Shown: positions 12,001-64,000 of the stretch, piece after piece
Layout: every line of letters starts with the position of its first letter
Position numbering within the stretch: position 1 is the stretch's first letter
Virus record (IMG/VR): IMGVR_UViG_3300037484_000435
Span: 320,001 to 384,000 of that record
Source: a virus
Taxonomy: Duplodnaviria; Caudoviricetes
Direction: 5' to 3' (one strand)
Length of the DNA: 64,000 nt
Position numbers and translations under genes: made by a program
Notes under the pieces: generated by a model
The model's input: only the letters and a program-made list of their open reading frames with translations
Told to the model about the DNA's origin: nothing
Databases searched by the model: none

Positions 12001-12530
12001 ATCTTTTCACCAGAAAAAGTTTCAATTACGTTAGGGGCCTTTAGGCCTTTCACAAAATCCATATAATCTAAGAACATATCCCGCTGCTGGTCAAGGCTAC
12101 GCCGCATTCTATCCGTATGTTGTTGGCTGGAATGAAACTGGCGATCGAATTCAGTTTGCATTTCCTGCCGAGCCTGAGAATACTCTTGTTTCTTTGTGAA
12201 TTCCTTGGAAAAAGGCTTTACTGGGTCAAATTCTTTTTTGGCAGTTTGGGGAGTGATCGGCCCTGCGGCCCGAAGATCCTTATCTCGAAGCATTGCAATC
12301 TGCTCTTCAATAGCATTTAATTCTGTTTGTATGCGGGATCTGTATTCCGATAAAATGGAAGTATCGTGGGATTGGGCGTAAGATGATTTGGCATCCTTAA
12401 TATCTCTAATATTAAGAGTTTTTAAATCTTCACGTAACTTATCTACAAAACCTTTTATATTCTCATTAATAGAGTCAGATAGTTGTGCGTCAATGTTTAT
12501 TTTTATATTAAAAGTATAATCTTCAGCCAC
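1..12530 (-). CDS. Giant tape-measure-position polyprotein (>=4176 aa, 3' end outside window) carrying RNAP, ligase, phosphoesterase, peptidase and RNase H domains
   Basis: GTG start at 12530 (MAEDYTFNIKINIDAQLSDS...), with GAGGT about 12 nt upstream. I translated the frame by hand over most of its length and found no stop down to position 3. It lies directly downstream of the tail tube and chaperone genes. It is absent from the ORF track because no stop lies in the window. Confidence 0.9.
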   Translation of the reverse strand, partial: MAEDYTFNIKINIDAQLSDSINENIKGFVDKLREDLKTLNIRDIKDAKSSYAQSHDTSILSEYRSRIQTELNAIEEQIAMLRDKDLRAAGPITPQTAKKEFDPVKPFSKEFTKKQEYSQARQEMQTEFDRQFHSSQQHTDRMRRSLDQQRDMFLDYMDFVKGLKAPNVIETFSGEKINVRPERTLQEIAAPNIFTRELELKLQKLQALPKEELGKEALRIRHQMDDVYQEIHTALSKVGYESHQEALKQVDALKSKLEEITTGNLAQITSAVEKELHSNKLAKQVVEMRDAITKAKEDLDKELGVEAIPTRRSFEQFQRSMVFTFAKPQFFEPAGPEFHDVESMSKRRGIGAPIGGRYVGDPRVTFNEFGGAQYGLTDVKALAKQLQSLMSAQGLSSSVKTDVGPDIQKSIDQYIESKGISRKAETIMSYSIDRLREIQKDLLSMVDQQLKAKLGAEEATKRIELVNKSIEGLTRQTIQIPSVHKSSRGALIIRDPERGEYLTLGKYLETRPAPNVLEDKYIAPLMEQVKTLRKEPKDIPRQIRDLSRLTKDYWVRSRPHEEHGVGIGQEGASEEVVQRVKNSFDLVSKFIKDTRGPRASKSLTAIDELRQQFNEQYESALREAIQSTRERLLKESVISGEVKLPDKLEKEFRPKMVPLVGKGARYELLPDPVLEYLRKESLKSGEAVSRIPTEKLESELQKTKEQELKKFGASDYQNRAWQRTLEQFSTYRPVDFYSLLNRAATYSKTDSNELQKLRNSLSSAGRLGNESYFQELLPQRFKKVFDPIKEKVPEEHEAMQKHEVYGRAKVTTIQPKIPGIDAGPSSYGVPVDLQALRRFIVTRNLDMEELVQKEFLRQTEASQRRLGPTIEKLATVGLNEASAAGKRDFGDHFMESMFRSKRLQPFASYDPRETEAFGYSINPARPTGAAWDSLAGPEFNAIRSRKAHGFIKGGEWGPYGTGLNVTTVLKDVSAGYEDLYQIGKRLQELATFKFKKMVVPSLKSTPEALKGSIIKYLEEVGHDIFGAPIQSKELADQTFVKDIVKRWSQSPKGPVEENIVELLNAYLGHETRKISTGQVMKGVAVTVARRMGPEAESSLVEKAKKGMAPRLEFSDIGMLREVPKTFEELLSEMIKARKDVDPAEAKKALEMIKGTRNLIMMSSEHLKDLKITPIEYGTGKLTGEDAPSVDERREFVSKVLGLGLAPTSVLKGAKTATDQVKTISADMGKVRKAYQEVVGGDLTRDVPVDLQVSASGIGKKSRMIGGNLAEMIANNIIGNLRSVALPDETLIDQIKRDPLAKVAVGNTASGVEARKLAELYKDILGLKGKYGEEFILDKEGKLEKAIAGAMHVMIMKEPKTWLSKGEEELESGESKMTVDPHGWFGLKKLFPKGGALEHEFTMRAFPDAREAGAYLNAFRSFSKLRSQELERDRSKTVITPEDLVDEGSNKYIAPLKRKATVADLSRTIFDAFKYGPSMVLRLPEPSEEVSKAREEEVAAGIKEGKQVVPIKKLIEIPEIKARQYVTSETGEILPSPDARYLSELIESVRKHSLLQKPAKTPQVEEIQKTFVDTMLGDFYNRIHPVRDIPFKKELLGKLEEQALGLVGNMPMPQFSAKSSLIADPQNPEKTWFPTLYSRLPEEHAKSLEEDFKKGITVSEAYTKYFSQLEDNVSNLNFRARLLRDLLSGSVIYTQDTNMIGKTVSEDISEGRNPNYAVKELVSPELLSKIVKDFRLYEPKLDARGQNVGLTSKTALDLQYGEIMRNLQAYYEELSGTVYGRGGLISNTIMKKKIPALYLTAQHRPYDPSEAIRSGIGRLEEFKEEIPGSEELIGQMSESLKNVGEFKKEHPSQWIGKGEVRIGRKDLVELQKAGMATPDLQSKVDDVYALINRQPTTDEFSYRSLKLTVDDMMKDLSGSVAVPGLPIGDYPVISTMNKTRDALEELREKKVKEIENELETSGGKFTSKVGKLQDDIDKIDKVSKDLLPLYHEASMTLDFDGDMISIHAATTQKANEELKRIHEMQLKDYGTTRRFMHENIQKSNVPESAVSLGVKGAELSPEELPASLKYRLSASSPGWKSMNYVDEITKAAKKNLLDIHETDPSTIAEDSLKHFVHKVDMGQGYEAFNRIGLLYRGADPKGLGLTPKLHENYNLLLGEFLRDTIQRVIGGKHGSAGSDLSPKVQQAFFTGNLDQLTSALDAGHGGWGEYKGGMQGAGEEALFGQQEESMRKYRLKFLRPLTLEQLQSESKEYGISTKGKDREQLIEDIIQKTSFRAMFENVFDQMMRMSVANVKELYATGLAGDATLSKKGSLGLARFVAGKPGYEDETLQTLGFKTKFKFNEGDFQALVGKDDITQLVIDEMRKASGKKLSKEEIGFRIAAMGEGIEKVRKGDYRNISEEIIQPGISTSTLYRGLQPMYKMKTSGGAAMAVGSYAKRSDIENEYTPGGPALSQAEVLDYVLRNKKGKGIEIPEMIGTFGGATEQKKYTFESPAMKAYEEFVVAHDQMMKIMNKEVYQVEGLLNQVQTFSKQTEGIYGEQSKAGRKFSYDKETGQVYIDSGIKTAFEDALRERMLARNPDERSTANDKLTQAMDRAHEIIRRGTALKYIDMGEGVKADYLRSVIDRVSDPKSSHAKEVDSLIEKLVYSREHGPMVKKALEGAGLGSMEDSSNIEVTVALRKIPAFRKQAVEEASASYIAGEAGYGSGIGPLRRASRSGFFGLTGVNLPAQISEGLVGRGKTQDLVASFSPLFKESWKEAVKENTETLSQEDWQSVYKAHPVLRGMKSPSEDTPYQDVISSLRNEGVYGGSRGVTHFINNVIKERQGQILEHIGAGLPKDWEDLRLSQVESRVNTAIPRSAEQSMWPFRPSAGGGVDLEEILSKPTHKVRNDVEKIFNSAFDLTSQDWQSIFHFDQKAKKITSESEKPLEALYAEGIYGENRGYTRYINMVFKKRMENILKELDIEPPDFYTMRFQKSRNEFLKAIEEKSVRGGLSTTMPSPGGPFGGPPFTPGEAFGEKAPENIRRAVRGFSPADYPHIKTGFEDPKFLEQDVEGSAQYKSHGHQIKMSAVPLRWGNTEIGYATRNKVLDPDTANKLYKPFIEQMEEGLAPELKKYSKDIGHRVDLFGEWGGKKDQLAWFDAKVANKPLPVDEFKKLADDLKLKTVDELYRGKVDKDLAQKVYTQQDQFKGIEEGVVAKALGEIDPKTGFPRMLKLKTKDYLVNEENRYPWRTQESAEQRIEERFARVLEGKRSYSPAYQTEEEIDQDSYKNFSPSLVQKQEGLYPEDWPVVETSKKRMEEYLKGLDDKFYQPPERAGEFKKGTKFLLQAPSVEPIPSFAKDAVVATQEELRKGIFGKGMPELPYDPVLVLNTRRQAPKYPEAVPISKEAGFMFPGEAKEGDVGRFVVHKHDAFRAGPHHDMRIEVGGQLQSWAVPEFMPTEKGKPRLAIGPTAHHAIDYYQKGEYDIPKGFYGAGHMATYDTGKATLESVKEGYVTVRLEGVKGLVDGTYNILNYEPKGEDTKKGQWLVSKVRPMEERDPERAKQFYGFSPNVEIDDTLGAGEGRYQDGNIRLFSPTNRAEMRAFMNVMQHEKGHAVIDYSAPTIAQDIMSGKEFPGIDTKKIQNYYMQKYGDRGEEEPANALEEALAGGLRTDEDQEVLDELAKVQELVAEKAGREAIGTSPQEELSFMRKNLQNYSPAQQPYTLYTDAGSRGNPGPSGAGAVLLNPKGQTIAEVNKYLGEMTSMAAEYQGLIMGLQEALKNSAQNIKVRSDSEVMVGQMRNEFKVKNEQIKELKAQADVLAAQFDNVSFSYVPREENKPADRLANIAMNRGLTPGTQAYAPLRQEPTGFLESAGRSALIGAAVAPIVGSMAYGLGLQHIPLATGAGAAVGALSGLTSAGVSRTPQLNPTNEERPIWKMLKGALSGAAVSSIAGAGWYGASSLLEGSNLLPQSFLDSRSSVIKAAPLWGAVTGGIGGLFTPSEKTYRSNTPAEGEENLDEPRLNAPADEKKPLWRRMAGGLGKAALIGGGAALAATYALPASMTMLGLGGLGAGTMAGATAYTGYPMIAPIVEALVGAIKTIGSSEIVKSGTALLGEGWSATKDLVGKISEYIPDSVTNLAKRGVNAAGSAAWSGMKDFEGYARPTFRKWDESAFPYATDVTKKVWGTAMDTVP
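3..1000 (-). other. Gly/Ala-rich hydrophobic segments (putative membrane-inserting tape-measure region)
   Basis: In-frame translation includes SALIGAAVAPIVGSMAYGLG, LATGAGAAVGALSG, MLKGALSGAAVSSIAGAGWYG and AGGLGKAALIGGGAALAATYALPASMTMLGLGGLGAGTMAGA. Confidence 0.65.
1029..1421 (-). other. RNase HI domain (Rv2228c/archaeal-type) within giant ORF
   Basis: YTLYTDAGSRGNPGPSGAG (D at 1401-1403), AAEYQGLIMGL, VRSDSE, VPREENKPADRLAN. All four acidic catalytic residues are present. The usual TNN is TSM here. Confidence 0.88.
1575..1870 (-). other. Zincin-like metallopeptidase domain within giant ORF
   Basis: GEGRYQDGNIRLF...VMQHEKGHAVI (HExxH at 1743-1757), with a downstream EEALA (1584-1598) as the likely third zinc ligand. 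Confidence 0.72.
1935..2411 (-). other. LigD-type DNA/RNA 3'-phosphoesterase (PE) domain within giant ORF
   Basis: RFVVHKHDAFRAGPHHDMRIEVGGQLQSWAVPE...RLAI..TAHHAIDY...IPKGFYGAGHMATYDTG...QWLVSK follows the LigD PE consensus FVVQKH..RRLHYDFRLE.DGVLKSWAVPK..RLAV..EDH.LDY..IP.G.YGAG...WD.G..WLL.K. Confidence 0.88.
2870..3380 (-). other. ATP-dependent ligase adenylation domain, RNA ligase (Rnl2-like), within giant ORF
   Basis: Motif I QYKSHG (K at 3351-3353), Ia YATRNKVL, III LFGEWGG, IIIa WFDAKV, TVDELYRG, IV EEGVVAK, V MLKLKTKDY, in canonical order. No OB-fold is recognisable afterwards. Confidence 0.78.
5241..7319 (-). other. RNA polymerase beta'-like (catalytic DPBB) region within giant ORF
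   Basis: YGRGGLISNTIMKKKI (cf. KGKQGRFRQNLLGKRV), GEVRIG, YALINRQPT (6846-6860; cf. VLLNRAPT) and MTLDFDGDMISIHAATTQKANEEL (DFDGD at 6528-6542; cf. [24 protein letters not shown]). The end boundary is approximate. Confidence 0.9.
5721..5813 (-). other. SAP/Rho-N-like helix-extension-helix motif
   Basis: LTLEQLQSESKEYGISTKGKDREQLIEDIIQ matches the L..ELK...K..GI...G.K.ELI..I pattern. Confidence 0.5.
8283..9659 (-). other. RNA polymerase beta-like (second DPBB) region within giant ORF
   Basis: GLNVTTVLKDVSAGYEDLYQIGKRL (YED 9597-9605; cf. E. coli [26 protein letters not shown]), KISTGQVMKGV (K-x7-K at 9288-9314; cf. KMAGRHGNKGV), VPVDLQVSASGIGKKSRMIGGNLAE (8742-8792; cf. [22 protein letters not shown]). 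Confidence 0.85.
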
Positions 12531-54770: not shown

Positions 54771-55250
54771 TTAACCTCTCTTCCTTAATTTCTTTAGTTT
54801 TTCAACTTGACTAGTAATATTCTGTCCTTGTGTTACGGTTCCTACAGCGTCTCCAACTGCCTCTATTCCACTTGTATCGATCACATTCACATCAATATCC
54901 TCTAATTTTATAAAGTCTTTCTTTTTAGGTTCAATTTCTTTGCCATTTGGCTCCACAGGAACCTCTCTAATTACCTCCCTTATTACCTCTGGCTGTGCAT
55001 TCATCTTGTCTATCACTTTTTGCTGTTCCAGTATAATCTGGGATAGCTGGTCAATCTTCTTACTTTGATCCAGTGATATCTCTGTCTGTTTAGAAAGTAT
55101 TTCTAATATTTCTTTACTAGGATCGTTTATTATTTCCGCTGGAATCATCTGGGGCTCGGGTAGACCAAGCTTCTTCGCCCGTAAGCGTTCTTCTCTGCGT
55201 ACCTTACGTTTTTCTTCATTATCATTTTCCCAATACATAAATAACACCAT
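54771..55250 (-). CDS. Coiled-coil hypothetical protein
   Basis: Heptad-rich centre; directly upstream of the actin-like gene. Confidence 0.55.
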   Translation of the reverse strand: MVLFMYWENDNEEKRKVRREERLRAKKLGLPEPQMIPAEIINDPSKEILEILSKQTEISLDQSKKIDQLSQIILEQQKVIDKMNAQPEVIREVIREVPVEPNGKEIEPKKKDFIKLEDIDVNVIDTSGIEAVGDAVGTVTQGQNITSQVEKLKKLRKRG

Positions 55251-55254
55251 ACCA

Positions 55255-55599
55255 TTATATTTCTATTCCAAACTTAATCTGTAACACCGCGTCTATAATA
55301 CTAGTTATGACCAAACCTATATAGGATGAGAAGGAACCTAACAGGCCTCCATAAAAAAGGTCCCAAAAAGGGTCTATCTTAAACACATCAAAACCAGTCC
55401 AAGTAATGAATACTCCCGACCAAAAACCTACACATATAACACACATTACCAGTTGGCACAACTTTTTAAGAAACAGGGACTCCTTATTTTTCTCATAAAG
55501 ATTTACAATAAATTCCCGTGCCTCCTGAAAAACTTTCTGCTCAACAATGATGCTAGACATCCAAAATGATATAATCATAAATAAAAAAATACTAAGCAT
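55255..55599 (-). CDS. Small membrane protein with CxxCxxFW motif (DUF1360-like)
   Basis: Three hydrophobic segments; LVMCVICVGFW. Confidence 0.5.
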   Translation of the reverse strand: MLSIFLFMIISFWMSSIIVEQKVFQEAREFIVNLYEKNKESLFLKKLCQLVMCVICVGFWSGVFITWTGFDVFKIDPFWDLFYGGLLGSFSSYIGLVITSIIDAVLQIKFGIEI

Positions 55600-56312
55600 T
55601 ATGTTAAAACCTCTATCCCATTATTCTGTATATAAACAGTATCTTCCGCATGAGCACTAAGTTCATCCGAAGTTATCGTCCACCTGTGGTCAAAAAATAA
55701 TCTACGAATCGGGTAACCATATACTATAGGTTCTATAGTAATAAATTGTCCCTCATTAATAGATTCTTCAGACCTATTATTATAGTTGGGAATCATAGGT
55801 GATTCATGCATCTGGTCCCCTATCCCGTGCCCGTGAAAATAATTACAGGCCCTAAATTTGGGGTCTTGTTCCAAAACAGCTTGAATTAAACCCCCTAAAT
55901 CACCTACACCCATTCCTGCATAGATTTTATTAGATACTGTTGGGACCACACTCATAACTAAGCTGGCTAATTTATGTTTAAGTTCTTCCGCCGAAGGCAT
56001 CGCAATAGTTCGAGCCTTATCAACAAAAACACCTTTATAGCATATCGACATATCTACAGATATTATATGGTCATCCTGAACAACCCTATCTGGGTAACCT
56101 TGTACCACCTCATAATCTATACTGACACTCATATTAAAGGGGAAACCTGCTAACAATAACCCCGATATGGCTCCTCGATCTGCTAAGAACCTACCCACCT
56201 CGATGTTAAGGGCACCTAAATCCTTACCTGCACGGAGGTCACAAAAAATAAGGCCAAAGGCGTCGTTGAGAACGCCCCCAGCCTCTTTCATAATCTCGTA
56301 TTTAGTTTTCAT
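55599..56312 (-). CDS. map: Methionine aminopeptidase-like (M24A)
   Basis: Metal ligands are present: VD...VD, GHGIG..MHE, TIEP, AHAED. The His79-equivalent is Gln. Confidence 0.75.
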   Translation of the reverse strand: MKTKYEIMKEAGGVLNDAFGLIFCDLRAGKDLGALNIEVGRFLADRGAISGLLLAGFPFNMSVSIDYEVVQGYPDRVVQDDHIISVDMSICYKGVFVDKARTIAMPSAEELKHKLASLVMSVVPTVSNKIYAGMGVGDLGGLIQAVLEQDPKFRACNYFHGHGIGDQMHESPMIPNYNNRSEESINEGQFITIEPIVYGYPIRRLFFDHRWTITSDELSAHAEDTVYIQNNGIEVLT

Positions 56313-56472
56313 CTTCCGAATTACGTGAAATAAAATTCGCGTAATCTATCGGTCTAATTCTAGGCGGTTTACGCTCTAAAGCCTCAGACCTAGCTCTACA
56401 TCTCCTACATTGGCAAGTTTCTCCATGACGTTCTTTTTTGTCACGTGATCCGTTCAATCTACCTTTGCCCAT
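56302..56472 (-). CDS. Small basic Cys-containing protein (56 aa)
   Basis: MGKGRLNGSRDKKERHGETCQCRRCRAR...; fills the gap between neighbours; below the ORF-track cutoff. Confidence 0.55.
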   Translation of the reverse strand: MGKGRLNGSRDKKERHGETCQCRRCRARSEALERKPPRIRPIDYANFISRNSEDEN

Positions 56473-56474
56473 AC

Positions 56475-56741
56475 TTAAATCTGCCCCTCCAACCTATTTC
56501 TTTCTCGTAATTCCTTAACCAAATAACGGTTAGGCCACAATTCAAGCCATTTTCGGTTAGACCCACTACGTGCGTCAGCCTGAGTCAAACTCTCTGGCCG
56601 AAACCTTCGTGCCTCTAATTTTCTAGCATTAGAATCCCCCCGAACCTCATAAGGATTATCAGGATCGAAGACATTAACTTCGGGAAGTTCCCACTCTCGG
56701 GCCATTTTAACATACCTCCTAAAATGGTGATAACTATTCAT
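56475..56741 (-). CDS. Hypothetical protein
   Basis: ORF in operon; the start may be the second Met. Confidence 0.5.
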   Translation of the reverse strand: MNSYHHFRRYVKMAREWELPEVNVFDPDNPYEVRGDSNARKLEARRFRPESLTQADARSGSNRKWLELWPNRYLVKELRERNRLEGQI

Positions 56742-57183
56742 TATGAGGCAATATGTTAGTTAATGCTTCTCGTTGCACGCAACTTTCGCACCACTCCACT
56801 CCATAATGAGTGTCCACTATCGTCGAACAAGGCCGACAAATTGTCCTACCACAGCACTCACACATTGTGCCATCGGTCTGATTATAAATTCCACTACAAA
56901 CTGGACAATAATCAGCAAGAGTTATGGTGCCCGAAGTTGCTAAAGTAATACAACCTGAGTAAGAAGTTAGAACCTTAGAATAGCCAAGGGTGGACAACCA
57001 CTGCTCACCGTGAGAACTTAACAACCAGTGTTTCACATACGTTATTGCTTGCTCCGACACATCCTCACTAGTAAAAGAAGTCAACCCATTGTACTTAGCA
57101 AAATTCCTTGTAATCTCTAATTGTTCAACAACATACTCTAGAGCATTGTGGTAGTATAAACGGTCAGTCGCATCTATAATCAT
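56734..57183 (-). CDS. Hypothetical protein with C-terminal zinc finger
   Basis: CPVC...CECC...CRPC...CESC. Confidence 0.55.
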   Translation of the reverse strand: MIIDATDRLYYHNALEYVVEQLEITRNFAKYNGLTSFTSEDVSEQAITYVKHWLLSSHGEQWLSTLGYSKVLTSYSGCITLATSGTITLADYCPVCSGIYNQTDGTMCECCGRTICRPCSTIVDTHYGVEWCESCVQREALTNILPHNE

Positions 57184-58076
57184 TTATTTAATCCTGCCAT
57201 TACGTTTAATTCTCCTTTTATACACTTTATTAATCGATTCAAATCCAACATTATTTGGGGAAATTTTAAAGAAAATGATTCCGCCAACCTAGATGTAAAT
57301 ACTATGACTCTATCTAGCCCATAATGTTCCATACGTTTTCCACATGCGATTTGTCTACGTTGAAACCAAGTAGGGTTTTTAGTTAAACACATCGTATCTC
57401 GGACCCTAAGTAATGTAAACACCAAGCCCCAGAGTACTGCCGAACTCAATCTTGGGTTCTCATTTAACTTGTCTAAAAACTCAGCGTACTCCCCATCTAT
57501 GAAATGGTTTACAATAACAGTCTCTTCCGACACGGAAAGCCTCCCACATATCAGGGCAAAATCCTGATAAGATAGGGACTGTACATAAGCTTGGTCTAAA
57601 AAAGACAACATTTTTGCCGTGTTAGTTATGGCCACCATATCATAACCACATGACACACATATAAACTTTGTGTAAACTGTTGGTAAATTAACACTTAACT
57701 GGGTCAAATATTGCTGACAAAACGCTTCTATTTGATTTGGAAAAAAGTCACTACAAATAATTTCACAAAATCCTAGAGATTTATATTTCTGTGTAATCTT
57801 TTTTGATGAAATCTTAATTACAAAATTAAGACCCTCTTTGGGTTCAACCTTATTACCAAATATGTAAGCAATAAGTTTGGGGCCAAATATTGTATAATTA
57901 CCATAAACTTTTAAATCAGATGATTTGGTCACATTTACAGCTTCTGTGACGCCCCAACCTTGTATCAATTTATCAATTACCAGCCCGCGGACAAAAGTAT
58001 TCTCTCCACTGAGGAAAACCTTGTTAATATTAGGTAACTCTTTTTGTAGGAACTCGGACGCATACATTACATACAA
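57180..58076 (-). CDS. DNA polymerase III delta-like clamp-loader subunit
   Basis: VFLSGENTFVR degenerate P-loop start, GYDMVAITNTAKML helix, adjacent to dnaX. Confidence 0.5.
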   Translation of the reverse strand: MYVMYASEFLQKELPNINKVFLSGENTFVRGLVIDKLIQGWGVTEAVNVTKSSDLKVYGNYTIFGPKLIAYIFGNKVEPKEGLNFVIKISSKKITQKYKSLGFCEIICSDFFPNQIEAFCQQYLTQLSVNLPTVYTKFICVSCGYDMVAITNTAKMLSFLDQAYVQSLSYQDFALICGRLSVSEETVIVNHFIDGEYAEFLDKLNENPRLSSAVLWGLVFTLLRVRDTMCLTKNPTWFQRRQIACGKRMEHYGLDRVIVFTSRLAESFSLKFPQIMLDLNRLIKCIKGELNVMAGLNK

Positions 58077-59161
58077 ATCTCCAAAGCAATCAATTGAAGC
58101 ATAAATTTTTTGTTATTACTAGAATTAAACTGGTCCGTGCGTCGGGCTAAGACGTCAGAAATATATAGAATACGTGGAATACCTATAGATTTGAAACACG
58201 CTATATACTGGTCTATGTAAAGAGGTTGGCCACCCGAGGAGACCAAAAGCAGATTAGACACAGCATCAACTATACCATCATTAAACAAAGTGTCAGGATC
58301 GACCCCCGACTCTAATATCTCCTGTAAAACCGCCCATAAACCTTTAGAATCCTTATTAGCCACACAATCCAAAATAGCAAAGGCCTTAGCTGAGTCCATC
58401 GAGCCGATAGAGAATAAGGCTGACTCTTGATTCCACCCCTTTTCCTTGCAATAAGGTATCACCTTTTCCAATAAGGTTAGGGCGTCCCTCATAGAATTCT
58501 TAGAAGCAAACGCAACTACCGCTGCCGCTTCCTTTATATCTTTGACCTTAATACCCTTCTCTTTAATTTGTTTTTTTATTATCTCAATAATATAGTCGGC
58601 TATAACTCCAGTCGGAATGCTCTTTAAATCCAAGGACACCAATCTAGATTTTATAGTGTCAGGGATTTTTGCTTTGTTCGTTGTACAAAAAATCCAAACT
58701 AAATGGGAAGGGGGCTCCTCTAAGACCTTCAGAAGGGCGTCCCACGAGGATTGTGACTTACCGAGACCTTGGGCCTCATCAACAATAAAAACCTTGTAGT
58801 TGCCCGCTATAGGCGTTAGCATCGCATGGTCCATTAACTTACGAATATCCTCGATGTTTCCATTTGTGGACCCACTCACCTCCATAATGTCTGGGTGATG
58901 CCCCGCAAGAGACATCTTACAACTCTCACACTCATTACAAGGTTCATAACCGTTCTGCCTATTCTGACAGTCCAACGTGCGGGCGAAAATACGGGCTAAG
59001 GTAGTTTTACCTAAACCTCTAACCCCAGATAGAAGTATACCCGCAGGTACACGATTAGCAGTAAGCATGCTCTTAAGAACTAAAGTTACTTGATCGTTGT
59101 ATATAACGTCTTCGAATTTAATCGGCCTTAATTGTGTTGCTAGATTGAGATACCGTTCCAT
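58067..59161 (-). CDS. dnaX: DNA polymerase III gamma/tau subunit (clamp loader)
   Basis: QLRPIKFEDV, GVRGLGKTTLARI, C..PCNECESC, KVFIVDEAQ, LKVLEEPP, TIKSR. Confidence 0.92.
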   Translation of the reverse strand: MERYLNLATQLRPIKFEDVIYNDQVTLVLKSMLTANRVPAGILLSGVRGLGKTTLARIFARTLDCQNRQNGYEPCNECESCKMSLAGHHPDIMEVSGSTNGNIEDIRKLMDHAMLTPIAGNYKVFIVDEAQGLGKSQSSWDALLKVLEEPPSHLVWIFCTTNKAKIPDTIKSRLVSLDLKSIPTGVIADYIIEIIKKQIKEKGIKVKDIKEAAAVVAFASKNSMRDALTLLEKVIPYCKEKGWNQESALFSIGSMDSAKAFAILDCVANKDSKGLWAVLQEILESGVDPDTLFNDGIVDAVSNLLLVSSGGQPLYIDQYIACFKSIGIPRILYISDVLARRTDQFNSSNNKKFMLQLIALEICM

Positions 59162-59531
59162 TTACATTCCAGTCCGTAAAGATATAGGTTGGCTTACCTT
59201 GCTTCATCGCAAGGTCGATTGTGTGTTTGGTTCCTTTAGATTGACCATCCCAAAAAGCTGCTATCATATCAGAGTAATCTACTATCTCTATATTCCTTTT
59301 ATATCCAGCAGACCTATCGTAAACACCGTTTACTCTCCATTTAGCAGGAAATACTTTCCAGTCGTGACCCTCTTCTTTAGCATAATCTATTGCTAGAGAA
59401 TCTGCACCCTGAGCCCCGCCAGAAACAATGGTACACTTCCACACCCAATAGGAACGGAGTAAATCATCTAATAGCCTTTTCATATAGGGATAGTCATTAA
59501 ACGTTCGCGATCCCACCACTCCTAATTTCAT
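59118..59531 (-). CDS. SLOG/YspA-like Rossmann-fold protein
   Basis: LGVVGSRTF, IVSGGAQGADSLA, AGYKRNIEIV, FWDGQSKGTKHTI. TAATG coupling at 59531. Confidence 0.78.
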   Translation of the reverse strand: MKLGVVGSRTFNDYPYMKRLLDDLLRSYWVWKCTIVSGGAQGADSLAIDYAKEEGHDWKVFPAKWRVNGVYDRSAGYKRNIEIVDYSDMIAAFWDGQSKGTKHTIDLAMKQGKPTYIFTDWNVNGTVSQSSNTIKAD

Positions 59532-60544
59532 TATGTTGGTCCCCAACCGCGTTTCTTAAGATATTCAACTGCCTTTTCCATATCACCTTTAGACTTCATC
59601 AAGGCTTCCCTACAATATATTTTGGGCTCACCAGTCCTATCCCTCAGGTCCTTTATCTTTGCTGTAGTAGCATAATCGTATATATCAATATCTTTGAGTT
59701 CTGGTAATTTTAATTCAGAAAAATATTTGTCATGGGCTTCACAACCGGCCTTAGATAACTGGTCTCGAAGTTTTTCGAAACCCTCTCTTGTCTTTTCTAA
59801 GGATTCTTTCATACCAACAACAAGTTCCTCAGTAGATGGCGGATTATTTACAAGATCGGCTAAAGAGAGATCCCCTGTATCCTTAGGTTTATCCCCATAA
59901 GGTCTGCTATCCCCTATATTCTCAAATTCACTGTTGAAATTTCGATAAAGAGCTTTATGGTCTTTGGCCACGTGGAACTTTTTGACATAGCCCTCTGGTA
60001 TGTCTTCACGTAACTCTACGTCTGCCCAACCATTGGGCAAAGGGTAAGCGTAATAGGGATAAGATTTGTTAGACCCACGAACGTAGGCCACGTTGATAGG
60101 AAGTCCCATCTGGTAAGCTAGACGACATCTGTGTTGCCCATCATTGATGATAAGTTTTATGTTTCCCCTACAATCAACGTACTCTTCAATTACAGGAGGG
60201 AGAATATCTATAGTCTTAATCTCAGCCACTTTACTGATATAAGGTTTGCCACCTGCTTCTATTGCAGTCTCAGTTGTATTAGAATAGTCAACTTTCAAGT
60301 AGCCATTCAATTGTAGAATATCCCACCCGAACTCGTTCATAATGTCCCACCGCAATTGTTCAATCTTCTTCAACTCACTAATAAGACAGTAACGCTGGGT
60401 TGGTGCCAAAACGGCGGGGTCAAAAGTTTCAATACTAATAAATGAATTTAGATAGGGCTGGGTGTTCCCGCCCCGTAGTTTGATATGTTTGAGTTTTTCA
60501 CACAACTCACCAGCAGATTTTGCTGAAATGTCAGAGAAGTCCAT
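59531..60544 (-). CDS. ParB/Srx-like domain fused to a C-terminal EF-Ts N-terminal (UBA-like) domain
   Basis: LPPVIEE...LIINDGQHR; C-terminal TTAKIKDLRDRTGEPKIYCREALMKSKGDMEKAVEYLKKRG. Confidence 0.6.
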   Translation of the reverse strand: MDFSDISAKSAGELCEKLKHIKLRGGNTQPYLNSFISIETFDPAVLAPTQRYCLISELKKIEQLRWDIMNEFGWDILQLNGYLKVDYSNTTETAIEAGGKPYISKVAEIKTIDILPPVIEEYVDCRGNIKLIINDGQHRCRLAYQMGLPINVAYVRGSNKSYPYYAYPLPNGWADVELREDIPEGYVKKFHVAKDHKALYRNFNSEFENIGDSRPYGDKPKDTGDLSLADLVNNPPSTEELVVGMKESLEKTREGFEKLRDQLSKAGCEAHDKYFSELKLPELKDIDIYDYATTAKIKDLRDRTGEPKIYCREALMKSKGDMEKAVEYLKKRGWGPT

Positions 60545-60648
60545 TCCTTTTTTCCTTCCTTTCCTTGTTTAGTAAAGATACTAGTGGGAAACTCCCCTAA
60601 GGGGTACCACCACTAGTAATAAATTTGAGAGATTAGCTTTTATTATCT

Positions 60649-60831
60649 TTACTTACCCAGTAGTATAAAACCACCAGATACCATAGCAAGAATAGCCAAA
60701 CCCATATAGACTAACTGTGTTGCGTAAACTGAGAGATGTAGTTGCCCGCTAACCAAAAACAAGGCACCACCAACAATCAACAAAATCGCAAGCAGTATTA
60801 GTCCAATATTTTTAATGATATCAATGTTCAT
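60649..60831 (-). CDS. Small two-TM membrane protein
   Basis: Two hydrophobic helices; RBS. Confidence 0.6.
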   Translation of the reverse strand: MNIDIIKNIGLILLAILLIVGGALFLVSGQLHLSVYATQLVYMGLAILAMVSGGFILLGK

Positions 60832-60844
60832 CCTTTGTTACCTC

Positions 60845-60901
60845 TTATATTAGCCGTAAAATAAGAATTACGACCAATACTATCACAAGTATTTCTAACA
60901 T
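60845..60901 (-). CDS. Very small hydrophobic peptide (18 aa)
   Basis: MLEILVIVLVVILILRLI; fills the gap between two membrane ORFs. Confidence 0.4.
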   Translation of the reverse strand: MLEILVIVLVVILILRLI

Positions 60902-60911
60902 ATTTGCACCA

Positions 60912-61070
60912 CTATCTACCTATCAGGATTAAAATTCCTGCAACAAGTGCAACTATTCCCATCACAACATGCAGCACAGGATGCCCAACAGCAAAAACTG
61001 TACAAATACCTGGTATTACTATTAGCCAAATTGCTAATAACAAAAGTCCCCAATTTCCTTGAATAGCCAT
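60912..61070 (-). CDS. Small two-TM membrane protein
   Basis: ATG at 61070 with AGGAG; two hydrophobic helices. Confidence 0.6.
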   Translation of the reverse strand: MAIQGNWGLLLLAIWLIVIPGICTVFAVGHPVLHVVMGIVALVAGILILIGR

Positions 61071-61177
61071 TATCTTTCTCCTAAAGTCTATCAAGACACA
61101 CCAAGAGATCCCTAAACATTTCTGTTCCTATTATAGGAAAAAGGCTAGATCATTATTACGATTTTTTCTTGTTGGAA

Positions 61178-61993
61178 CTACCTATACTGCGACCTTGGTC
61201 TCCTCGGTTGTCGAGAAAAAAGTCCTAATTCTTTTCTTGTTGCATTTAAATAACTACACGACACACCTAATCTTCTGGCCACCAAATCCCAAGTTCCTTC
61301 CTCGTTATATAAATTAACAATCTCATCAGACGATACTCTTTGTGAAAGTCTTTCGGGCCTAGGAGGTATAGATATAATGGTTTTATATAAATTGTATTTT
61401 CTTGGCAAATAAAAATTACAATTCCCATATAGGAGATGTAATATTCTTTGAACAATAGGGTTTCCAGAAAACTCAATAATGTAATTCTCCCCATTTCGTC
61501 TGGGTGATTTTCTAACATCTCTGTCTGAGCCAACAAACTTGGCGAAGCCTCTCACCAAAGGTTTAGTATTTCTAAAATTAACACACCAGTGGTTACTACG
61601 AGTGCTATGACGATAAAAAATAGAGCCATCTCCGTCAAACAACCCTCTGTAGTAATGCACTTTTTGTTCCTTAGGAACCAGATTACAAGGTTCGAGATTA
61701 TAAGTTTTATTATGAACTAAGCCCAACTCTCTCAATCTAGTAGACATCATGGGAGATCTGAAAGCTAAGGAACAAGTGTGTGCTTTACCTCTAATCCTAT
61801 CACTAATTTTATGGTTGGATTTAATTGTCTCTTTAAAAAGTTCAAGCCATTCGATATCTTTTATAGATATTTCCATACCAATGGAGTTCTTTTGAGATAC
61901 AAAACCATCAGACGAAAGAACACCAAGCCAATAGGCTGGGCCCTCATAATTCAAATTATTAAAGTAATCATGGGTAAGAGTGTATTCTTTCAT
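61178..61993 (-). CDS. LAGLIDADG homing endonuclease with C-terminal HTH
   Basis: AYWLGVLSSDG and YYRGLFDGDG; C-terminal WDLVARRLGVS. ATG at 61993 with a GGAG RBS. Confidence 0.83.
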   Translation of the reverse strand: MKEYTLTHDYFNNLNYEGPAYWLGVLSSDGFVSQKNSIGMEISIKDIEWLELFKETIKSNHKISDRIRGKAHTCSLAFRSPMMSTRLRELGLVHNKTYNLEPCNLVPKEQKVHYYRGLFDGDGSIFYRHSTRSNHWCVNFRNTKPLVRGFAKFVGSDRDVRKSPRRNGENYIIEFSGNPIVQRILHLLYGNCNFYLPRKYNLYKTIISIPPRPERLSQRVSSDEIVNLYNEEGTWDLVARRLGVSCSYLNATRKELGLFSRQPRRPRSQYR

Positions 61994-62028
61994 ATAAAAA
62001 TAAATTCTCCAACAATTTAATGTACTTG

Positions 62029-62616
62029 TGGAGCTGGGCGGTACTGCCCCGCCGTGTAGTCTGGCTTTCAATTATGAGTCTCTAGGTATCGTAGCCCGTT
62101 TATACTCAAAGCAGAGTTTTCTAACTCTTCGGGACCCAGCGGTTAGTGACTGATAGCGAATTGGTTTCCCGCACGGTGGCGGTTGGCCTTCTCATCCCTA
62201 TCCCAGTTTCAGTTGCTGGAATACCTACGACCGTAGGATTTAAATTGGGGGCGTATTGGGGGTGTTTTAATTAAACTAACCCTGCTAGTGCTAGGTTCGG
62301 ATTGGCTACCAACATCTCCCTTTTTCTACGCCGCCTCCACCAGTTGGTGTTTAACCTCTCCAACAAGAGGGCACGCGTAACCAAAGTTACGTGCTCCACC
62401 CAGCTATTCTGTTGCAAAGTCAACTGGGGAACTCCACAAGTTCTATTAAACGCTCGCGAAAGTCAAGCTGTCGCGTTTGTCTTGCTCCAAGTAGGATAGA
62501 ACTGTATCGAAAATTGAATTTTCGGCATTTATTGTTTCGCATCATTTTACTGGATGATACACCAGGATACCAACTTATAACCTACTTTCACCACCTATCG
62601 ATCCTAGTTCAGCCCC
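62029..62616 (-). ncRNA. ssrA: tmRNA (one-piece, unusually long, about 588 nt)
   Basis: Acceptor stem GGGGCTG/CAGCTCC with G3-U70 and discriminator A. T-arm GGCGG-GGCAGTA-CCGCC. P2 pairing GGTATC/GATACC. pk1 CTGG/CCAG plus GTATCAT/ATGATGC. Resume context ATAAAT-GCC. CCA is not encoded. Confidence 0.92.
62446..62526 (-). other. tmRNA tag reading frame (A)AENSIFDTVLSYLEQDKRDSLTFASV*
   Basis: 26 codons from GCC (62526), ended by tandem TAA TAG. Confidence 0.85.
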
Positions 62617-62656
62617 ATGGTGGTAGGAGGACTCTATTGAATCCCCCTTTCTTTCA

Positions 62657-63091
62657 CTATCTTAAGAATCTTTTATCTTGTCCCATCAAATACTTATCTA
62701 ATAGGACTAGAAGGTTCTCTAAAATATGGCATAATTCTTTAGCACCCTGCTCCCTTTTCTGATTACGTACAACGTAATTGGCACCATTATCGTAGTATTC
62801 AAAAATATCCTCGTAACCATTACCAGAAGCAATAACTACTACAGGGAGTAAAGACGCCATACGGTTTGACTTTATATTAGCCAAAACCGTGTTAATAAGT
62901 TTGGGAGGCGATTTCCCAACTAAGATAATGCAAGCATCATAAGATTTATCCTGTAATTTGGATGTTATATTTACGGTTTGCATCTCTAAGTTAGACTCCA
63001 ATACACCAGCTTTAGTCAATTGAACTATCCAAGCGTTCGCTTCCGCGGAGTCCTCACTAAAAATTAAAAATTTCCTGTCAAAATGTTCCAT
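62657..63091 (-). CDS. Degenerate (pseudo-)receiver domain protein
   Basis: FLIFSED...DACIILV...IKSN....LPVVVI...EDIFEYYDNGANYVVR resembles Rcp1-type receivers but lacks the phospho-Asp and the conserved Lys. Confidence 0.6.
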   Translation of the reverse strand: MEHFDRKFLIFSEDSAEANAWIVQLTKAGVLESNLEMQTVNITSKLQDKSYDACIILVGKSPPKLINTVLANIKSNRMASLLPVVVIASGNGYEDIFEYYDNGANYVVRNQKREQGAKELCHILENLLVLLDKYLMGQDKRFLR

Positions 63092-63103
63092 AGTTCTCCT
63101 AAA

Positions 63104-63481
63104 TTACACGTGACCGGGAAGTTCTTCTCCGGGGGCAACATGGGCCATCTCTAACGTAATTATATTAGGACGTTTTCCTTTAACAAAGTTTGAGATGTTC
63201 AAGATAGGAATAGGCATCAATGGAAAAAATTTACCATTCTGCTCCTTCACCATTTCCTCCATAGCTCTCGCACCCTTTTTATTGGAAACTACTTCCATTA
63301 CGTAGTCATCATTAACAATGATTTCCCATATATTGGCCCGCTTATCTCTGACAAAGTCAGATAGTGCTTCTAAAGGAATATCCTCTAAAACCAATTCCTC
63401 AACCTCAGCCTCATTCATCAAATCTAGGATTTTCTGAGCATGTTCCTTAGTTGTCTTTATTTCTGCTTTAAAATATTCCAT
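63104..63481 (-). CDS. Hypothetical protein
   Basis: Probable ATG at 63481 just after the HU stop. Confidence 0.55.
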   Translation of the reverse strand: MEYFKAEIKTTKEHAQKILDLMNEAEVEELVLEDIPLEALSDFVRDKRANIWEIIVNDDYVMEVVSNKKGARAMEEMVKEQNGKFFPLMPIPILNISNFVKGKRPNIITLEMAHVAPGEELPGHV

Positions 63482-63482
63482 C

Positions 63483-63764
63483 TTATTTAACCGCGTCCTT
63501 AAGCAATCCCGAAGGTATGAACTTAGGGTACTTAGTAGCCTCCTTATTGATTTTCTTTTGGGTTCTTGGCTCAACGTATACCCTCGCTTTCTTCTCCACA
63601 ACATCAAAAGCACCAAAACCCCTTACGCTAATCCTCTGGCCAGCCTTTAGGGCCTGCATGATGTCATCAAATACGTTACGTATAATTGCTTCAGCATTCT
63701 TTTTTGTTACCTTTTCATCCTTAAACTGTGCGACACAGCTTTCCACTAGATACTGAAAATTCAT
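63483..63764 (-). CDS. HU/IHF-family DNA-binding protein
   Basis: GQRISVRGFGAFDVVEKKARVYVEPRTQKKI...PKFIPSGLLKDAVK; ATG at 63764 with GAGGAG. Confidence 0.9.
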   Translation of the reverse strand: MNFQYLVESCVAQFKDEKVTKKNAEAIIRNVFDDIMQALKAGQRISVRGFGAFDVVEKKARVYVEPRTQKKINKEATKYPKFIPSGLLKDAVK

Positions 63765-63816
63765 TCTTTCATCTCCTCTTACTTTCCTGTGTCTATATAA
63801 TATATAGTACACAAAC

Positions 63817-64000
63817 TTATGTCTTTAAAAAATCAGACCATTCGGGTATCCGGTATTTAATATTTACTACAGTTTGTAAATATTCAAACACCTCCATCCG
63901 TTTGGGCAATCCTCTCAATAGCCCCATCCCAGCTTCTGAAGGTGTCCTGTCTCCCTTCTTCGAATTACAGTCAACACAAGCTGTAACTAGGTTGTCCCAA
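63817..64000 (-). CDS. HNH endonuclease (McrA-like), C-terminal part, 5' end outside window
   Basis: [27 protein letters not shown]...; TAA at 63817-63819. Confidence 0.8.

Follow-up and report, generated by a model that had tools for sequence, protein, structure and literature searches.

The window analysed in this work is a stretch of 64,000 nucleotides from an uncultured megaphage of the class Caudoviricetes (IMG/VR record IMGVR_UViG_3300037484_000435, positions 320,001 to 384,000). It is part of a virus record of 545,322 bp that is rated as complete by CheckV, with a G+C content of approx. 40% and with almost all its genes on the minus strand, where all the features described below are also located. 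The open reading frame (ORF) at 59531-60544 codes for a real, modular phage protein of 337 residues that consists of a ParB-CE enzyme domain, a linker and the N-terminal domain of the elongation factor EF-Ts, and it is the first gene of a clamp-loader (replication) operon. The reading that we favour, with a probability of roughly 50%, is that this protein is an enzyme of pyrimidine deoxynucleotides placed at the replication operon, that its tail docks on the EF-Tu of the host, and that the SLOG protein encoded by the following gene is an optional partner.

According to this proposal, the ParB-CE core would act on pyrimidine deoxynucleotides and would supply or clean up DNA precursors. It would most likely hydrolyse dUTP and/or dCTP to give monophosphates, i.e., it would be a non-homologous stand-in for dUTPase/dCTPase. 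Through the captured EF-Ts N-domain, the enzyme would dock on domain 1 of the EF-Tu of the host, and the SLOG protein would be an optional, translationally coupled partner, similar to DprA and YAcAr proteins, that binds nucleotides or single-stranded DNA. A bolder version, in which these proteins would form a new non-homologous class of pyrimidine deoxynucleoside triphosphate (dNTP) hydrolases, belonging to an undescribed thymidylate pathway (with dCMP deaminase, HAD and a pterin-domain thymidylate synthase-like protein) and tethered to host EF-Tu in megaphages, seems to us rather unlikely.

The complete protein was included in the ORF list of the window, and an identical protein of 337 residues is found on a record from a 545,322-bp contig. 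Its AlphaFold2 (AF2) model, built on 60 homologues, has a mean predicted local distance difference test (pLDDT) value of 90.4 and revealed a mixed α/β domain (residues 1-215), a long helix (238-275) and a three-helix bundle (294-332). This architecture looks new, although both component domain families were already known, and we found no published description of a ParB-CE/EF-Ts fusion or of its split and shuffled variants. The INPHARED phage records contained no relative of the 337-residue protein or of its 9-kb region, and a scan of IMG/VR using the single protein as query retrieved nothing; the IMG/VR relatives described here were obtained with an alignment-based scan. A scan of metagenomes gave only six short phage loci, none of them with the tail.

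The ParB-CE domain

Residues 1-215 (59900-60544) are predicted to adopt the fold of the ParB/sulfiredoxin superfamily, whose proteins use nucleoside phosphates and of which this domain would be a catalytic member. The Pfam family ParB-CE (PF24392) matches residues 13-177 (60014-60508) over its full length (profile positions 1-147 of 147), with a score of 119.3 bits against a gathering cut-off of 23 (E-value 1.7e-34), and a six-frame search of the genome agrees with this assignment. An initial annotation, made from the sequence alone, had proposed a ParB/Srx-like enzyme domain and had noticed a DGQHR motif in the N-terminal part of the protein. Both observations hold: the family and fold matches identify the domain, and the motif (residues 135-139, 60128-60142, translation checked) lies within the full PF24392 match. 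Among the homologues the motif reads DGxHR, and the variable position 137 is occupied by Q, A, M, L or I, but never by Cys. The residues that are invariant in 24 homologues are present in the phage protein, i.e., Y31, Q50, Y52, E120, D135, G136, H138 and R139, as well as P163-Y164-Y165, K188, K189, R201, F207 and R214. A β-hairpin insert (residues 82-114, 60203-60301), formed in the AF2 model by strands 82-97 and 100-114, is found exclusively in the huge-phage clade; the length of this region varies, and the bacterial homologues in the alignment have no insert.

When the N-terminal domain was compared using Foldseek, the matches included sulfiredoxin (3cyi, 1xw3 and 1xw4, probability 0.98-1.0), ParB (6sdk, 0.96) and Noc (7nfu, 0.87-0.93), and also SerK and SbnI, the range for SerK, SbnI and sulfiredoxin being 0.85-1.0. 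In a structural scan (VIA) of 48,161 PDB representatives the scores were modest, with Z values of 6.3 for SerK (5x0b), 6.1 for Srx, 5.8 for PadC and 5.5 for SbnI. SerK (5X0B), SbnI (5UJD, 6NR6) and sulfiredoxin (3CYI) have the same fold, with the nucleotide site around a loop of the Gly-x-His/Arg-Arg type; nevertheless, the phage core is only 8-13% identical to them, shows no family-level sequence match and does not have the Cys of Srx. The stand-alone bacterial ParB-CE proteins are among the closest known systems. For example, P0054 from Desulfofundulus thermosubterraneus, with 202 residues, is the same domain end to end, and these proteins show 37-43% identity and all the invariant residues. 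They differ from the phage protein in the absence of the hairpin insert, the linker and the EF-Ts tail, and in that their genes are found beside those for dCMP deaminase, HAD or thymidylate synthase-like proteins and not beside a clamp loader.

The fold, together with the presence of ParB and Noc among the structural matches, could indicate that the phage protein has an ordinary ParB-type role in partition or DNA clamping. This is extremely improbable, given that no match to PF02195, to a helix-turn-helix or to the ParB C-terminal dimerisation domain was detected at E-values of up to 0.1, that the motif is DGQHR (family DGxHR) and not GERRxRA, and that nothing but the linker and the EF-Ts N-domain follows residue 215; in addition, no evidence of ParA or parS was seen, and the bacterial context is metabolic. 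An identity as sulfiredoxin was also rejected, the loop being DGQHR, without the catalytic Cys of the GCHR loop. We found no published work on ParB-CE (PF24392, "ParB-like catalytic effector") or on any measured activity of this family; the papers dealing with Menshen and with ParA immunity concern ParB families other than ParB-CE.

Bacterial relatives and thymidylate precursors

In bacteria, 154 loci with a ParB-CE gene were recovered (L009-L088 and L098-L171), mostly from sulfate reducers and their relatives in several phyla. The carriers include Desulfomonilaceae, Desulfacinum, Desulfonema, Desulfofundulus, Desulfovirgula, Magnetominusculus and Armatimonadota (carrier genomes G001-G005, G010, G043, G051, G079, G080, G086, G110, G117, G142 and G147). 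A gene for a ComEB-like dCMP deaminase is located at 2.5 kb or less from ParB-CE in 118 of the 154 loci; in 115 of them the two genes share a strand, and they often overlap. Within the same distance there is a HAD hydrolase in 52 loci, and in 37 a protein of approx. 490 residues with a divergent thymidylate synthase (TS) domain and a PterinBD-DUF4346 region (TS-like). At least one of these partners is present within 2.5 kb in 132/154 loci. In Peptococcaceae, the ParB-CE cassette lies between glyA, which encodes serine hydroxymethyltransferase (SHMT), and the ATP-synthase operon. Distant phage contigs show a similar grouping: L007 carries HAD, ParB-CE, dCMP deaminase and TS-like genes, while L005 and L006 carry ParB-CE, cupin and TS-like genes.

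Other observations were made on these loci. Most ParB-CE bacteria encode a fusion of approx. 490-590 residues between the divergent TS and PterinBD-DUF4346, often in one operon with the deaminase, HAD and ParB-CE. An apparent fusion of ParB-CE with the TS-like protein in Desulfovirgula (L068, an ORF of 734 residues) turned out, by frame arithmetic, to be an out-of-frame overlap. In 65 bacterial loci the genes for dCMP deaminase and ParB-CE are preceded by that of a protein of approx. 360 residues ("cluster 3", e.g., L012:4252-5328), which has a weak, patatin-like match that falls below the cut-off (E-value 3e-5). A fold similar to that of ParB-CE (TM-score 0.68) was found in the ESM Atlas inside proteins of 625 residues from Bacteroidota, together with patatin and iHKD domains.

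The distribution of other enzymes of this metabolism was examined in a sample of 151 genomes of one phylum, of which 11 carry ParB-CE. ThyX is present in 94 of the 151 genomes and in none of the 11 carriers (Fisher p 1e-5, kinship ignored); likewise, the canonical trimeric dUTPase (more than 80 bits) is present in 120 of the 151 and in no carrier (Fisher p 5e-9, kinship ignored). The same pattern was observed in four further carriers, i.e., Desulfonema magnum, Desulfofundulus australicus, Desulfacinum infernum and Desulfovirgula thermocuniculi. Overall, a canonical dUTPase was found in 0 of the 15 carrier genomes examined, and genome searches of five carriers, including the complete chromosome of D. 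magnum, gave no ThyX. No canonical ThyA was detected in the carriers, where the matches to PF00303 reached only about 20-45 bits (22-33 in five genomes); those above the cut-off are open frames of approx. 490-750 residues, and where this was checked (D. magnum and Desulfovirgula) they correspond to the TS-like/pterin-binding genes. Tmk was present in the five carriers tested.

It looks as if the carrier genomes run a non-canonical dUMP/dTMP module, which would be a thymidylate pathway not described so far; we found no paper on the combination of DUF4346/PterinBD with TS, or on a link of ParB-CE with a thymidylate module devoid of Dut and ThyX. Since the carriers lack dUTPase, Dcd, ThyA and ThyX and in view of the operon partners, both of which give indirect support, ParB-CE is a candidate for the missing step from dUTP/dCTP to the monophosphate. 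The superfamily is a natural source for this reaction, since it comprises the ParB proteins, which hydrolyse CTP, and Srx, SerK and SbnI, whose phosphotransferase activity relies on ATP/ADP. By function, the proposed activity is analogous to that of the T4 gp56 dCTPase/dUTPase and of the cellular Dut, which convert dUTP/dCTP to monophosphates and keep dUTP out of DNA; these proteins are not homologous to ParB-CE, and the analogy is drawn from the neighbouring genes and from complementary phyletic patterns. The chief alternative is a nucleotide kinase; such an enzyme, or some other phosphotransferase, would suit the fold about equally well. The location of the phage gene at the head of a replication operon fits an enzyme that serves the dNTP pool.

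Regarding the megaphage itself, its genome has a ThyX gene and a small ORF similar to dCMP deaminase. Neither trimeric nor dimeric dUTPase, MazG or ThyA was found in it, nor was a TS-like, HAD or cassette-type deaminase gene.

The EF-Ts tail and the linker

The N-terminal domain of EF-Ts (TS-N, UBA-like; PF25025/PF00627) occupies residues 293-333 (59546-59668), and it is supported by profile, PDB sequence and structure comparisons. The profile TIGR00116 (tsf) aligns with these residues through its positions 5-45, with an E-value of 1.5e-6, or 1.9e-7 in a six-frame search of the genome, and a phmmer search against the PDB sequences gave residues 4-44 of E. coli EF-Ts (1efu_B, E-value 1.3e-3). 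In Pfam, the EF-Ts_N and UBA matches to residues 293-331 were sub-threshold (EF-Ts_N PF25025, 19.2 bits versus a gathering cut-off of 33.2). When the last 123 residues were used as query against 1.84 billion representatives with phmmer, three phage relatives appeared first, and next came EF-Ts proteins, given that all nine of the top matches checked carry the EF-Ts core PF00889; the E-values in the match list ranged from 2e-9 to 1e-3. The three-helix bundle superimposes on E. coli EF-Ts (4pc3_C, 4pc6_C and 1efu_B) with 0.7-0.8 Å root-mean-square deviation over 41-42 residues and 40-41% identity, as determined with Foldseek. In the scan of 48,161 PDB representatives three EF-Ts chains rank at the top (Z 7.6, 7.2 and 7.0), ahead of generic UBA domains. 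The initial annotation had read the last 41 residues or so as this same domain, in good agreement with the profile and the structural ranking. No EF-Ts N-domain other than this tail was detected in the phage genome.

The possibility of a functional EF-Ts was rejected: there is no match to PF00889, TIGR00116 scores 27.6 against a cut-off of 104 and aligns only at positions 5-45, and the protein ends four residues past the N-domain match (333 of 337). Without the EF-Ts core domain, nucleotide exchange by the tail is excluded. In comparison with residues 1-54 of E. coli EF-Ts (1EFU chain B), the tail has the same bundle, core and motifs, together with the Arg and Lys/Arg of the EF-Tu contacts; it differs in being C-terminal on an unrelated enzyme, in having neither PF00889 nor the TDFV/Asp-Phe wedge, and in the replacement of the AGMMD loop. 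Compared with the consensus of 115 EF-Ts N-domain segments obtained from 91 hits, the tail keeps the hydrophobic core and the motifs LR.RTG, C(K/R).AL and GD.

Several matches to the tail had other explanations. Proteins of 600-1200 residues were polyproteins of S1 and tandem EF-Ts and not novel fusions, and, when the tail alone was compared with INPHARED, everything that matched was a bacterial tsf gene from a "phage" record that is mislabelled or contaminated. The similarity of a hidden Markov model of the tail to the DnaX lid domain (E-value 0.048), and of the structure to the clamp-loader chain 8val_E (Z 5.4), reflects a generic three-helix likeness. In a protein of 184 residues (P0063), which has no EF-Ts core, a tandem pair of EF-Ts N-like domains precedes an unrelated C-terminal region; from its sequence, it would be another non-canonical use of the EF-Ts N-domain.

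The charged linker, which had already been pointed out in the initial annotation, comprises residues 216-292 (59669-59899). Its central helix (238-275, 59720-59833) is flanked by stretches of low confidence that are predicted to be disordered, with pLDDT below 50 at residues 220-226 and 282-287. This helix carries a conserved LSKAGCEAHDKYF motif that is common to P0002, P0003, P0041, P0060 and P0061 and partly present in P0006, P0007 and P0013; it has no counterpart in Pfam. A short motif, (S/T)LA(D/E)LV, is found at residues 224-233 (DLSLADLV in this protein, PTLAELV in P0060). It is encoded beside clamp-loader genes and faintly recalls the peptides that bind the bacterial sliding clamp, although a relation to them is pure speculation.

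Modularity among the homologues

The majority of the 59 homologues are proteins of 200-225 residues formed only by ParB-CE. The EF-Ts tail was detected in five other homologues (P0002, P0003, P0013, P0025 and P0041), and in P0006 and P0007 the helical linker is present and the EF-Ts part is absent. On one contig of 35.8 kb the two parts are encoded by separate genes, i.e., a ParB-CE protein that is 81% identical (P0004) and a tail protein of 255 residues (P0060); P0061, with 144 residues, is another free-standing tail. The core of P0041 is only 40% identical to that of the protein from the window, yet the tails of P0041 and P0002 are almost the same; P0041 and P0007 are encoded on contigs of 647 and 658 kb, respectively. 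The tailed forms appear in at least three places on the family tree, which is a quick maximum-likelihood version where the row of P0060, non-homologous and wrongly included, has to be ignored.

From the scattered distribution on the tree and the near identity of the P0041 and P0002 tails, it follows that the tail is a mobile module that has been repeatedly coupled to ParB-CE. It has been shuffled between divergent ParB-CE cores, and this, together with its occurrence as a separate gene on the contig of P0004 and P0060, suggests a functional tie with them. A further feature of the relatives is a conserved Cys-rich motif (G.IGQCCMGKPGQEMI) located ahead of the LSKAGCEAH.KYF helix in P0002, P0003, P0041, P0060 and P0061. 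It has been lost from the protein in the window, and in the relatives it may be a metal site or a redox motif.

Proposed docking on EF-Tu and its alternatives

Docking on host EF-Tu is the most likely role of the tail, at roughly even odds, considering that the nearest relatives of the tail outside phages are EF-Ts proteins. The initial annotation had suggested an enzyme directed to EF-Tu or to the translation apparatus, which is plausible. EF-Tu is a very abundant host protein. The megaphage genome encodes no EF-Tu or other translational GTPase; therefore, any EF-Tu partner would be that of the host. It has been reported that in the EF-Tu/EF-Ts structure from M. tuberculosis Arg13 of the N-domain contacts P114 and E155, and Lys24 contacts D144 and D145 (PMC9529903). 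The equivalent residues are Arg and Arg in this tail, and Arg and Lys/Arg are found in six of the seven phage tails.

Several points weigh against the favoured reading. The TGAGMMD loop, whose positions are each 70-80% conserved in the EF-Ts hits and which we take to pack on helix D of EF-Tu, is TGEPKIY in this tail, and it differs in nearly every phage tail (EPKIY, EGKMH, ESLYY, VDYEQ, MGMRE and MGKFD). The UBA-like bundle could bind another partner, and we see no convincing reason for a dNTP enzyme to sit on EF-Tu. Given that the tail is absent from most phage and all bacterial ParB-CE proteins, EF-Tu cannot be required for the core reaction. As for the chemistry, dUTPase cleaves the α-β bond, while the known ParB/Srx enzymes act at the γ or β phosphate. 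Moreover, in this phage clade the ParB-CE gene has moved out of the dCMP-deaminase/TS-like cassette to the head of the replication operon, so the job of ParB-CE may have changed, and the anticorrelation with ThyX and dUTPase rests on few lineages, with no phylogenetic correction.

A different view of the tail is that it descends from EF-Ts as a UBA-like module but no longer binds EF-Tu, and that it serves for dimerisation or as an adaptor, e.g., towards a replisome or nucleotide-metabolism partner. The lack of conservation of the EF-Tu-facing loop among the phage copies agrees with this, as does the fact that P0013 has lost the Cys and the equivalent of Lys23. In the structural scan the generic UBA, CUE and NAC domains come nearly as high (Z 5.2-6.8), the gene belongs to a replication operon and is not among translation genes, and the LSKAGCEAH.KYF helix that precedes the domain is kept even in P0006 and P0007, both without the EF-Ts part. 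Nevertheless, the tail is 36-46% identical to real EF-Ts N-domains and only 6-29% identical to other UBA domains, it keeps the reported polar contacts with EF-Tu, and none of the results indicates an alternative partner; for these reasons an adaptor seems possible but the less probable role.

If the tail does bind EF-Tu, the latter could be the substrate rather than the anchor. ParB-CE, like sulfiredoxin or the Doc kinase, would then modify EF-Tu, and this would retune host translation or shield EF-Tu from defence. Sulfiredoxin, an ATP phosphotransferase directed to a protein, is among the closest structural matches, and the flexible linker of approx. 75 residues would allow the enzyme to reach the surface of the docked EF-Tu. 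There are also precedents for EF-Tu in phage-host conflict, since Lit and type IV Thoeris target and cleave it, Avs7 uses it as a scaffold, and the Qβ replicase recruits it with EF-Ts as a subunit (PMC12803255). On the other hand, the same core with all the invariant residues is found without the tail in most phages and in bacteria, in operons for small-molecule nucleotides, and the Srx-type catalytic Cys is missing (GQHR instead of GCHR), which leaves this explanation with little probability.

Docking, as proposed in the favoured reading, has a precedent in the Qβ replicase, where the interface between EF-Tu and EF-Ts gives a phage a structural handle (PMC12803255); the EF-Ts-EF-Tu fusion chains of the Qβ structures 3agp and 4r71 are among the matches of the tail in the phmmer search of the PDB and in the structural scan. 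The difference is that Qβ recruits the host proteins themselves, while the double-stranded DNA (dsDNA) megaphage carries a gene in which a copy of a single EF-Ts domain is joined to the phage enzyme.

The SLOG gene and the clamp-loader operon

The stop codon of the ParB-CE gene and the start codon of the SLOG gene overlap in a TAATG sequence (59529-59533), which was read directly in the sequence (...ACATAATGAAATTAGG...), as the initial annotation had indicated. The SLOG protein (59118-59531) has 137 residues counted from its ATG and is of the YAcAr/DprA type, in agreement with the SLOG assignment of the initial annotation. It matches PF10686 (YAcAr) with 41.9 bits versus a cut-off of 28.2, PF02481 (DprA) with 36.5 versus 29.6, and phrog_289 with an E-value of 1.8e-28. 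Its AF2 model (pLDDT 80) gave Foldseek matches with DprA (4ljl, 5mll and 3uqz), ShosA (8zva), YpsA (2nx2) and the SLOG domain of ThsA (7uxs), all with a probability of 1.0. The Gly-rich loops of this Rossmann-like fold (GSR, SGGA.GAD and DG.S.GT) are invariant in four homologues.

The related huge-phage contigs represent eight sequence-distinct loci (L001, L002/L003, L004, L092, L093/L094, L095, L096 and L097). Of the six loci that span the position of the SLOG gene, three (L001, L093/L094 and L097) have it after ParB-CE and three (L002/L003, L004 and L092) do not have it, while contigs L095 and L096 end before reaching this position. The pairing with SLOG, which was part of the initial annotation, is therefore not a fixed one, and the EF-Ts tail is optional as well. 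That annotation had also considered the pair as nucleotide-processing proteins acting against host defence; the operon and the phyletic context are in favour of nucleotide processing, but they point to DNA-precursor metabolism at a replication module rather than to an anti-defence role.

As an anti-defence pair, ParB-CE and SLOG would destroy or sequester immune signals derived from nucleotides or messengers derived from NAD. The name "catalytic effector" given to the family in UniRef could point in this direction, as could the resemblance of the SLOG protein to ShosA and to the SLOG domain of ThsA, the ParB-CE-like fold inside the 625-residue proteins with patatin and iHKD, and the patatin-like gene near ParB-CE in 65 bacterial loci. 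A survey of jumbo phages predicted that YAcAr SLOG domains use NAD+ (PMC7824862), which also counts for this explanation. However, PADLOC gave no match for ParB-CE, the bacterial loci are stable housekeeping neighbourhoods across genera (with SHMT, ATP synthase and EF-G-like genes) and not defence islands, and in the phages SLOG is missing from half of the six loci, while ParB-CE keeps its place as the first gene of the clamp-loader operon. In consequence, we regard an anti-defence pair as quite improbable.

The next gene codes for a DnaX-like clamp-loader ATPase (58067-59161; PF13177, E-value 1.8e-37; phrog_5846, E-value 1.2e-59). The dnaX gene comes immediately after ParB-CE, or after SLOG, in the seven loci that reach far enough (7/7; L001-L004, L092, L093/L094 and L097). 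The rest of the operon (55599-58076) encodes a protein of 298 residues, a Cys-rich protein of 149 residues, a protein of 88 residues, an ORF of 56 residues and, as the last gene, a methionine aminopeptidase (MetAP; 55599-56312; Peptidase_M24, E-value 2.2e-24) that is syntenic in L001-L004. The operon is co-directional, and neighbouring ORFs overlap by 4-10 nucleotides; scans for promoters and terminators gave results at chance level. No family matches the 298-residue protein, which from its position would be a delta-type subunit of the clamp loader. The gene order HU, 144-residue protein, ParB-CE, SLOG (where present), DnaX, 298-residue protein, 149-residue protein, 88-residue protein and MetAP is kept in L001-L004.

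Directly upstream of the ParB-CE gene there are two tandem ORFs of 60 residues (60649-60831 and 60912-61094), whose sequences are similar (…LLAI.LIV.G…GILILIGR/K) and which, by eye, are predicted to be double-pass membrane peptides. An ORF of 297 residues (61178-62071) shows weak matches to LAGLIDADG proteins (PF14528, E-value 6e-4), and a homologue that is 32% identical occupies the corresponding place in L004. To judge from these matches, it is probably a homing endonuclease inserted upstream of the replication operon. ARAGORN, and Rfam at its gathering thresholds, gave no hit in the region 55000-64000. Positions 3-12530, at the left edge of the window, are occupied by a giant ORF, open-ended and at least 4176 residues long.

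Implications

For the annotation of genomes, the immediate consequence is that ParB-CE genes should no longer be called partition ParB proteins. The operon partners, together with the missing dUTPase, ThyA and ThyX, give this unstudied family a functional hypothesis that is concrete and cheap. The tail would represent a rare capture of a host domain, in which a dsDNA phage copies only the part of EF-Ts that grips EF-Tu and places it fused to an enzyme or beside it. If this tail binds EF-Tu, it would add another route by which phages exploit this protein, besides those involving the Qβ replicase, Lit, type IV Thoeris and Avs7. A non-canonical thymidylate route would be relevant to the nucleotide metabolism of sulfate reducers and to the pathways that provide DNA precursors in phages and, if the proposal is true, the supply of these precursors would be physically linked to the translation machinery.

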